A DNA stretch of 64,000 nucleotides from Escherichia coli. Its GTDB lineage: Bacteria; Pseudomonadota; Gammaproteobacteria; Enterobacterales; Enterobacteriaceae. The position numbers and the translations under genes are program-made. How positions within the stretch are numbered: position 1 is the first letter of the stretch; each line of letters opens with the position of its first letter. Under the pieces are notes generated by a model. The model saw only the letters and a program-made list of their open reading frames with translations, searched no databases and was not told the DNA's origin. Below are positions 1 to 2,725 of this stretch, piece after piece. The stretch lies in assembly GCF_045037415.1 (NCBI RefSeq), contig NZ_CP173438.1; one strand, given 5' to 3'.

Positions 1-111
1 CATCATAAGGACTTGCTGTAGCTGATAGCCTTCCGGTACGGTTTGTGCCTGAGCATTTGAAGCGAGTAAAACTATCCCTGCCACAGTTGCGGCGATTAGC
101 GTTTTGTTCAT
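1..111 (-). CDS. agp: Glucose-1-phosphatase Agp, N-terminal 37 codons (partial, runs off window start)
   Basis: Reverse-strand translation from ATG at 111 gives [37 protein letters not shown], the recognisable Agp signal peptide and N-terminus. Confidence 0.8.
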
Positions 112-645
112 TCCTCACACCTCTTTTGTTATCAATAATTAAAGAGTGTGACAGAAATATGTCATTTTTCCGGGAACAGGTTCGCAAAATGGCTCGTTGA
201 ACGCCTGTTTTTCTATATTCCCCTTTAAAAACAGGCAAGTTTTGACGCAAACTATGCCTGATTAGCCCCGGCCTCGTTTACGCCGCTAATGATTACATCA
301 GTAGCTATAAAGAAAATCAGCGGCGTTACCATTACCAATAAAAAAAGAATGTGAGACTAATAGCAATGGTTTTTAGCACATGTCTTTATCATTAAATTGC
401 ATAACGATTTAAATAGTCGAGTTGTGCATTCCTTTCCTTATTGTTTAACTTGTAAGCATGAGCCAAAAGTTCAGGAGTGAGGTAAATAAAATATGTTCCT
501 CCCACCTTGAGGCAACCTCCCCTCCGCGATGATTTCAATAACATATTCTGTGTTGGCATATGAAATTTTGAGGATTACCCTACACTTATAGGAGTTACCT
601 TACAGGGGTTCCTTCAATTTGTGTTGATTTACGCGAGATAACGCT

Positions 646-1566
646 ATGGAATTAAAGGATTATTACGCCATCATGGGCGTGAAACCGACGGACGATCTCA
701 AGACAATCAAGACCGCCTATCGTCGACTGGCCCGCAAATACCATCCTGATGTCAGCAAAGAACCGGATGCCGAAGCCCGCTTCAAAGAGGTCGCCGAAGC
801 CTGGGAAGTGTTAAGTGATGAACAACGTCGCGCTGAGTATGATCAGATGTGGCAACATCGCAACGATCCGCAATTTAACCGTCAGTTCCATCATGGCGAC
901 GGTCAGAGTTTTAACGCCGAAGATTTTGACGATATCTTCTCGTCAATTTTCGGTCAGCATGCCCGCCAGAGCCGTCAACGCCCCGCCACACGCGGCCACG
1001 ATATTGAAATCGAAGTGGCGGTTTTCCTCGAAGAAACGCTTACTGAGCATAAGCGTACCATCAGCTATAACCTGCCGGTTTATAACGCCTTTGGCATGAT
1101 CGAACAGGAAATCCCGAAAACGCTGAATGTGAAGATCCCGGCGGGCGTCGGCAATGGTCAACGCATCCGCCTGAAAGGCCAGGGGACGCCGGGCGAAAAC
1201 GGCGGTCCAAATGGCGACCTGTGGCTGGTGATTCACATTGCGCCACATCCGCTGTTTGATATTGTCGGCCAGGATCTGGAAATAGTGGTGCCGGTTAGCC
1301 CGTGGGAAGCGGCGCTGGGTACTAAAGTCACCGTTCCAACACTGAAAGAAAGCATTTTGCTGACTATCCCGCCTGGCAGCCAGGCCGGGCAACGATTGCG
1401 CGTTAAAGGCAAAGGTCTGGTGAGCAAAAAACAGACCGGCGATCTGTATGCGGTACTGAAAATCGTGATGCCGCCGAAACCGGATGAAAACACTGCCGCG
1501 CTGTGGCAGCAACTGGCAGACGCCCAGTCGTCTTTTGATCCACGTAAAGATTGGGGGAAAGCATAA
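646..1566 (+). CDS. cbpA: Curved DNA-binding protein CbpA (DnaJ-like co-chaperone)
   Basis: 306-aa ORF; J-domain with HPD motif (KYHPDVSK) near N-terminus; matches recalled CbpA. Confidence 0.95.
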
Positions 1567-1871
1567 TGGCTAATGTTACGGTGACTTTTACTATTACCGA
1601 ATTTTGCCTGCATACCGGCATCTCTGAAGAGGAGTTGAATGAAATTGTCGGTTTGGGGGTGGTTGAACCGAGTGAGATCCAGGAGACAACCTGGGTATTT
1701 GACGACCATGCCGCCATTGTGGTGCAACGCGCGGTACGCCTGCGTCATGAACTGGCTCTGGACTGGCCGGGGATCGCGGTGGCGCTGACGTTAATGGATG
1801 ATATTGCGCACCTGAAGCAGGAAAACCGCCTGCTGCGCCAGCGGCTTTCCCGGTTTGTGGCTCACCCGTGA
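1566..1871 (+). CDS. cbpM: Chaperone modulator CbpM
   Basis: ATG overlaps cbpA stop (TAATG); translation [33 protein letters not shown] matches CbpM; ORF track start moved to the internal Met. Confidence 0.9.
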
Positions 1872-1878
1872 GTTTGTT

Positions 1879-2120
1879 GCCTGATGCGACGCTTAACGCG
1901 TCTTATCAGGCCTACAAAGAGCACTGTTCCCGTAGGCCGGATAAGGCGTTCATGCCGCATCCGGCAACTGCGCCATAATGCCTGATGCGACGCTTAACGC
2001 ATCTTATCAGGCCCACAAAAAGCACTGTTCCCGTAGGCCGGATAAGGCGTTCTCGCCGCATCCGGCAACTGCGCACTAATGCCTGATGCGACGCCTGCCG
2101 CGTCTTATCAGGCCTACAAA
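1879..2120. repeat. BIME: about 2.4 tandem ~101-bp units of alternating REP palindromes (gcctgatgcgacgc...gcgtcttatcaggc and ggccggataaggcg...cgcatccggc)
   Basis: Direct repeat with period 101 bp (unit starts 1879, 1980, 2081); each unit holds two REP-type palindromes; sits between convergent cbpM and torD. Confidence 0.9.
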
Positions 2121-2125
2121 CGGCA

Positions 2126-2725
2126 TTATCTTTTTTGGTAGTCACACTCCACTAACACCAGCAATAACTGGCTTAGTGCCGCGTAAAAACCAAAGCTGTC
2201 ATACTGTCGACAACGCGCAGCAAACTCTGGTAACCATTCCCGCAGAGCCGTCAGTGTTTTTTGCCGCAAACCGTCGATTCTTCGCGCAGGAACGGTCCCC
2301 TCTCCCAGCGAAAAATGCAGATGACTCAACAAATCGAGATAGATCGCCAGATGATCTGCCGGTTCGTTGAAATTGCCGCTGGTTTCCATCCCCGCCTCAA
2401 CTAACAAGCGTTTAATCTCTTGCTCGTCCTGTTTGTAGGCCGATGCATACGGCAGCGCCGCTTGTTTGTCGGTCATCAGAAACAGGCCGCAAAAGTCAGC
2501 GGCCAGTTCCAGACGGGCATCGTCACGTACTGTCAGAGTGGCAATACTGTTTTCCAGCCCATTCACCGCCGCAGTGAGCGGCGGTTCGCTTTTCAGCAAC
2601 GAAAACCATTCAGCCATCTGCGCACTGGCGATTTGCGTCAGTTGTTCATCGTCCAGTTCACGGGAGAACAACTGCGCCAGCCAGGCGTAAACACAGGCAA
2701 TCTGTTGTGCTGTCAGCGTGGTCAT
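2126..2725 (-). CDS. torD: TorA-specific chaperone TorD
   Basis: ORF translation from [20 protein letters not shown] matches TorD (199 aa); start overlaps torA stop (ATGA). Confidence 0.9.

Follow-up and report, generated by a model that had tools for sequence, protein, structure and literature searches.

In Escherichia coli K-12, the genes cbpA and agp are separated by yccE. The locus described here, in which agp and cbpA are direct neighbors, raises the question of what became of yccE and what its disappearance did to the DNA upstream of cbpA. The stretch analyzed, referred to as the window, comprises 64 kb of an E. coli genome and begins with the 5′ end of agp on the minus strand (1–111, start codon 109–111). 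By translation, this part holds the first 37 codons with the signal peptide; it has 96.4% nucleotide identity to K-12, differs from it in one of the 37 N-terminal residues, and is annotated as agp in the identical genome of SK1144. On the plus strand, an intact cbpA of 306 codons (646–1566, 98.7% nucleotide identity to K-12) encodes the curved-DNA-binding protein, a DnaJ-like co-chaperone, and is followed downstream by cbpM and then by torD and torA.

An earlier description made from the sequence alone (the sequence-only reading) had placed the agp start at 111 on the minus strand and the cbpA start at 646, which is correct. The K-12 gene order given in it also agrees with the MG1655 locus (L002), where cbpA (minus strand), yccE (plus strand, 1257 bp, L002 4037–5293) and agp (plus strand) follow each other and the start codons of cbpA and agp are 1,809 bp apart. 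The agp-cbpA spacer of the window (112–645) was described as AT-rich, and its G + C content is indeed 38.4% compared to 51.5% for the whole 64-kb window; its length had been given as 535 bp and is 534 bp. In contrast, the statement that no ORF longer than about 15 codons is present has to be corrected: ten ORFs of 20 to 55 codons overlap 112–645, the longest of them (55 codons) being located at 392–559 on the minus strand.

The flank-by-flank alignment with K-12 revealed that the window lacks L002 3940–5198, a segment of 1,259 bp, which consists of nucleotides 1–1162 of yccE (codons 1–387 and part of codon 388) and of the 97 bp that precede the gene. The total length difference between the two loci is 1,275 bp, and the other 16 bp are small indels in the flanks. 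Breakpoints were placed by aligning each flank separately; a MAFFT global alignment of the window with K-12 was rejected, as the gap was set on the wrong side of 487–537. The deletion junction, located between positions 486 and 487 by the alignment and by a junction probe, reads GGTAAA followed directly by TAAAATATG and joins nucleotide 1163 of yccE to position −105 of the cbpA regulatory region. No microhomology was found at the junction 486/487. In an alignment of ten strains, the window, S88 and EC28 share this junction base for base. The claim that a functional yccE is missing relative to K-12 is therefore borne out by the flank alignment and the comparison with MG1655, and the upstream context of cbpA differs from that of K-12 as proposed, with nearly all of yccE and 97 bp of its upstream DNA absent.

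Only the last 95 bp of yccE are left in the window. They are located at 392–486 on the minus strand and contain two nucleotides of codon 388, codons 389–418 and the stop codon (392–394). In the pairwise alignment, this 3′ remnant has 94.7% nucleotide identity to K-12 (L002 5199–5293); on the protein level, 26 of 30 residues are identical to K-12 YccE and the stop codon is retained. It could be detected by tblastn with YccE as a query (E = 2.6e-12) and matches positions 378–418 of the NCBIfam model NF007304, “YccE family protein” (E = 1.6e-13). Furthermore, PGAP annotates a partial pseudogene on the same bases in SK1144, EC28 and S88. The remnant lies between agp and cbpA and is co-directional with agp, as expected for the yccE locus. 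K-12 YccE scores 945.7 bits against NF007304, whereas the best ORF of the window (392–559, minus strand) reaches 50.4 bits and stays below the curated cut-off of 812 bits for the full-length protein (~418 aa). By tblastn, no other YccE-like sequence was found in the 64-kb window; in S88, which also lacks yccE, the remnant is the single place matching the gene, and in yccE-less genomes the yccE query aligns only at nucleotides 1163–1257. The sequence-only reading had named a yccE remnant in the spacer, to be searched for there and elsewhere, as an observation that would count against it. Such a remnant is present in the spacer and absent from the rest of the window, and the statement that yccE is missing nevertheless stands.

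The 55-codon ORF at 392–559 (minus strand) is chimeric, with 24 codons of cbpA-upstream DNA in frame with the yccE tail. A family match (YccE) was obtained for its last 41 residues only, no Shine-Dalgarno sequence was recognized before its ATG by reading the sequence, and PGAP calls no gene there. It is probably an accident of the deletion and not a gene.

The presence of a remnant identifies the spacer as a derived deletion scar and not as a site that never held yccE. The opposite polarity, with an ancestor that lacked yccE and an insertion of the gene between agp and cbpA in the lineages outside B2, has some properties of the gene in its favor. yccE is AT-rich (34% G + C compared to 51.5% for the window), is H-NS-silenced (PMC9769918), and has no relatives outside one 50%-identity cluster; low G + C content, H-NS silencing and orphan status are typical of horizontally acquired DNA. 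Even so, this explanation is very improbable: strains that never received the gene would show a site free of yccE fragments, whereas 95 bp of yccE coding sequence including the stop codon are kept here in the right place and orientation, which contradicts an ancestral empty site, and E. albertii carries a divergent homolog at the same locus. Judged from the sequences, with a remnant that retains its stop codon along with 26 of 30 residues and a yccE-like gene in E. albertii, the polarity is one of loss. The spacer is very probably the scar of a single ancient deletion that became fixed in the E. coli B2 lineage. By this event, 1,259 bp would have been lost at once, leaving the last 30 codons of yccE beside an intact agp upstream region. 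As yccE and cbpA are divergent neighbors, the far breakpoint would have come to lie in the cbpA regulatory DNA, at −105/−106 relative to the P1 start, and the AT-rich, H-NS-silenced yccE island would no longer stand between cbpA and agp.

The distribution of the deletion was determined in 5,426 complete E. coli genomes. A 120-bp junction probe is spanned with at least 96.7% identity in 1,123 of these (about 21%), while in yccE-bearing genomes the match ends exactly at window position 486. Positions 1–900 of the window are contiguous in 1,133 genomes. At least 80% of yccE is present in 4,228 genomes, in many of them as a pseudogene, which supports the earlier assignment of yccE to the variable gene pool; the genomes outside these and the 1,123–1,133 deletion carriers have other lesions. 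Among the genomes with the junction are S88 (phylogroup B2), “clone D i2” and one strain labeled O25b:H4-ST131. Some sequencing libraries can give low coverage of AT-rich DNA, and yccE might on this ground have been collapsed out of the assembly. Such an assembly or sequencing artefact is refuted by the population data and can practically be dismissed, given the exact junction in 1,123 independent complete genomes and the many genomes that match 12 kb of the window at 100% identity. An identical junction in so many genomes indicates one inherited event, and the lesion is one inherited deletion in phylogroup B2.

The loss of yccE from this phylogroup is already known. Hall et al. (2022, PMC9769918) report yccE to be absent from B2 strains, and Table A1 of a Shigella review (2023, PMC10383432) gives E2348/69, 536, SE15, ABU 83972 and CFT073 as yccE-negative; according to these sources, the gene is present in phylogroups A, B1, D and E and in Shigella. 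The polymorphism is the same as the one found in the window, which has the junction of S88 and ST131; S88 and these published tables are the grounds for assigning the deletion to B2. In the passages considered, these papers record presence and absence only, and the breakpoints, the 95-bp remnant, the frequency and the overlap with Fis and P6 come from the present analysis. New are the exact anatomy of the deletion and its overlap with the Fis/P6 control region of cbpA.

Between the remnant and agp, the window has retained agp-upstream DNA (112–391) that is homologous by alignment to the yccE-agp intergenic region of K-12 (292 bp in K-12). Here, the identity to K-12 is 88.8% with 18 gap columns, and a 15-bp indel is present. 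Between lineages, this region is 86–92% identical and the neighboring genes are 98–99% identical. No Rfam family was detected in 112–391 at the gathering score; a weak match to ar35 obtained 23 bits compared to the required 45 (E = 0.11). The Rfam search of window positions 1–2300 likewise left the spacer without a credible match and reported only the REP-type naRNA4 after cbpM. The cbpM-torD spacer (1872–2125, 254 bp) contains three REP/BIME-type units, two of which are above the gathering score of naRNA4 (RF02564). The corresponding spacer is 151 bp long in K-12 and contains the core GCCTGATGCGACGC once, and the window carries one extra unit of about 101 bp compared to K-12.

Including the remnant, positions 112–486 are 86–89% identical to every yccE-bearing allele sampled, compared to 98–99% for cbpA and 100% for 538–645. 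The divergence of 11–14% on the agp side goes beyond a simple deletion and could be due to long-standing allelic divergence, to relaxed constraint or to recombination. The sharp mosaic boundary would fit an allele in which the deletion had already occurred in a divergent Escherichia lineage and which reached B2 by homologous recombination; the imported segment would extend from the diverged DNA upstream of agp across the yccE scar and through the altered Fis region. However, the agp-yccE region is hypervariable among yccE-bearing strains as well (K-12 and O104:H4 are 91.8% identical, and the yccE alleles span 89–100%), which makes the divergence a property of the locus. Furthermore, none of the other Escherichia species compared showed donor-like sequence, and an import is unlikely. 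Since the locus is hypervariable in general, old allelic divergence is the simplest reading of 112–486. No yccE-bearing genome with B2-type flanks was found. H117 and FDAARGOS_403, whose yccE 3′ ends are the closest, were considered as carriers of the pre-deletion allele and rejected, as they are of the O104:H4 type with 85% intergenic identity.

On the side of cbpA, the deletion enters a region that has been mapped in detail in K-12. The gene is transcribed from P1 (sigma-70) and P2 (sigma-38), whose −10 hexamers overlap; a 55-bp Fis footprint extends from −145 to −90, with a primary site (−108 to −94) that holds the −10 hexamer TAAAAT of P4, and a strong promoter, P6, starts at −204 within the yccE gene and is oriented towards cbpA (Chintakayala et al., 2013, PMC3547828). 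In the model of these authors, Fis is an insulator that keeps P6 from driving cbpA in growing K-12 cells. The published map was placed on L002 and on the window by our own mapping. Only one 15-mer, GTTTAAAATATGTTC (L002 3942–3928), begins with G, ends with C and contains TAAAAT, and the Fis consensus GNNYAWWWWWTRNNC matches K-12 at L002 3928–3942. The resulting P1 start (+1) is L002 3834, which corresponds to window position 588. The mapping was checked with the published knock-out mutations, of which those at −11, −7 and −6 fall on key A/T bases of TACCCT and TACACT. Furthermore, a promoter scan reports TTTGCA-17-TATATT at L002 4074–4046, and the −217/−216 knock-out mutations of P6 sit on the TA of this TATATT.

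On this map, the deletion runs upstream from −106 and the breakpoint lies inside the primary Fis site. The bases −145 to −106 are absent, and the site of P6 is located within the deleted L002 3940–5198. According to alignment and mapping, P6 is removed together with roughly 40 bp of the 55-bp Fis element. What is left of the primary Fis site are 12 of 15 bp at 487–498 (plus strand), including the P4 −10 hexamer TAAAAT (487–492). The GTT with which the site begins in K-12 is replaced in the window by AAA from the yccE remnant, so that AAATAAAATATGTTC stands where K-12 has GTTTAAAATATGTTC and the G at position 1 is lost. The Fis consensus GNNYAWWWWWTRNNC has no match in the window spacer. In all seven yccE-bearing strains aligned, W409 included, the primary Fis site is unchanged. 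As a side observation, the complete 64-kb window contains three perfect GNNYAWWWWWTRNNC Fis-type matches, all within 60009–60950 and two of them less than 70 bp apart (60883–60950); the total count is no higher than expected by chance.

Between the Fis site and the core promoter, the alignment shows a polymorphic stretch at 499–537, which is also variable among yccE-bearing strains; together with 487–498, it differs from K-12 by five substitutions and four missing bases. The core regulatory region and the 5′UTR of cbpA (538–645, plus strand) are 100% identical to K-12, and the ten aligned strains do not differ between about −68 and the ATG. The overlapping −10 hexamers are found at 576–586, with TACCCT of P1 at 576–581 (start at 588) and TACACT of the sigma-38 promoter P2 at 581–586 (start at about 593), all on the plus strand. 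A scan of window positions 1–760 reported no sigma-70-like site, but it is insensitive and also misses the real P1 and P2. Compared with the published K-12 region (PMC3547828), P1/P2, the 5′UTR and cbpA itself are identical or nearly so and TAAAAT is kept, whereas P6 and most of the Fis footprint are gone and the DNA upstream of −105 consists, unlike in K-12, of the 3′ tail of yccE and the DNA upstream of agp.

Given the unchanged core promoters, cbpA in the source strain would still be induced in stationary phase from P1/P2, and the insulation by Fis would be no longer present and no longer needed. On the basis of the sequence comparison, it is proposed here at about even confidence that P1/P2 still drive cbpA and that P6 and its insulator were lost together. 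Fis binds degenerate AT-rich DNA, and the AT-rich yccE tail beside the half-site could still be bound by it.

Lesions of independent origin also affect yccE at this locus in other E. coli. Among six loci examined that have a full-length yccE, the gene is a pseudogene in four. Frameshifts were found in O157:H7 F6294 (L003 2902–4159), O104:H4 (L009 1501–2761) and strain 300081 (L006 2904–4161), an internal stop codon in CREC_5 (L008 1497–2744) and an IS1 insertion in STEC2018-553, while in W409 (L007 3001–3791) an IS1 combined with a deletion has left the first 78 nucleotides of the gene. These lesions affect the same gene at the same locus as in the window but leave all or most of yccE in place, unlike the B2 deletion. 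In W409, the 78 nucleotides kept are those of the 5′ end, and hence the regulatory DNA on the cbpA side including P6 and the Fis element is preserved. The B2 deletion is the only lesion among those compared that cuts into the cbpA regulatory region.

The same site also varies in other members of the genus. In E. albertii NBRC 107761, a yccE-like gene is located between agp and cbpA (L012 1721–2888, minus strand), which is 23% identical to YccE over residues 167–395; it is apparently frame-broken, with a poly-G tract close to its 5′ part, and retains the motifs GDGYC and GNHYN. In four Escherichia genomes (E. whittamii, Escherichia sp. E1V33, E69 and SCPM-O-B-8794), yccE is replaced by another cassette directly upstream of cbpA, which encodes a LysR-type regulator, a 417-aa FAD-oxidoreductase-like protein and a 123-aa RidA-like protein; it is located at L049 77–1014 and within the 3.3 kb upstream of cbpA in L050, L026 and L015. 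E69 and SCPM-O-B-8794 are titled E. coli, yet are separate species representatives. The site upstream of cbpA is a replacement hotspot in the genus. In Escherichia sp. MOD1-EC7003 (L051), only scattered fragments of yccE were found at about 400–900 in cbpA-forward orientation, and of agp no more than the last 63 bp were detected within the approximately 1 kb available upstream of cbpA, which looks like a different and more extensive decay of the agp-cbpA locus.

YccE, the product of the lost gene, contains no Pfam domain, and no Pfam OTU match was obtained even at E ≤ 10. An exhaustive HMMER search of 1.84 billion representative proteins returned no relatives beyond one 50%-identity cluster; word-indexed and HMMER searches yielded only E. 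coli-type YccE and fragments, and a deep alignment could not be built. For an assignment to the OTU cysteine proteases, D-G-x-C at the N-terminus of a helix and a general-base His followed two residues on by Asp or Asn were looked for. YccE carries the motifs DGDGYC (Cys 212) and H(385)-Y-D(387) in canonical OTU order, and neither varies among the E. coli alleles; both recur in the E. albertii homolog, where the second reads H-Y-N. In a profile search against the PDB sequences, only OTUD3 (E = 0.38) and EschOTU (E = 3.2) appeared at E ≤ 10; neither is significant, and both matches fall exactly on the DGDGYC and H-Y-D motifs. EschOTU of E. albertii was rejected as an ortholog of YccE due to its permuted order of His and then Cys (PMC7396840), whereas YccE and the E. 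albertii gene at the agp-cbpA locus have Cys and then His.

AlphaFold models of YccE are poor, with a pLDDT of 36 for the full-length protein and 52 for the C-terminal domain. Foldseek searches against the PDB with the YccE model gave nothing at E ≤ 0.001; four of the top five hits are bacterial OTU deubiquitinases, with TM-scores of 0.16–0.24 for a low-pLDDT model. No link between YccE and deubiquitinases was found in the literature searched. Based on these motifs, YccE as an OTU-type cysteine protease is a motif-level lead and not a result. The B2 breakpoint in codon 388 lies directly after the putative catalytic His and Asp. With up to three mismatches allowed, no match to the MxiE box consensus GTATCGTTTTTTTANAG was found in the K-12 locus L002 or in the window.

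A combined and clearly tentative proposal, which is rather doubtful as a whole, is that growth-phase control of cbpA in B2 strains (ST131, ST73, ST95 and others) may be Fis-independent and exerted via P1/P2 alone following the natural co-deletion of P6, as a spurious intragenic promoter, and its insulator, and that YccE may be an unrecognized OTU-type cysteine protease (Lot-like, in canonical order) from an old MxiE/H-NS-controlled set of effector-like genes.

In itself, the B2 deletion is a lineage marker and a further, ordinary case of the decay of an H-NS-silenced orphan gene. Since it takes away P6 and most of the Fis insulator, however, about a fifth of the sequenced E. coli provide a ready natural test of the Fis insulation model, and regulatory maps of cbpA based on K-12 should be checked before they are transferred to ST131 and other ExPEC.
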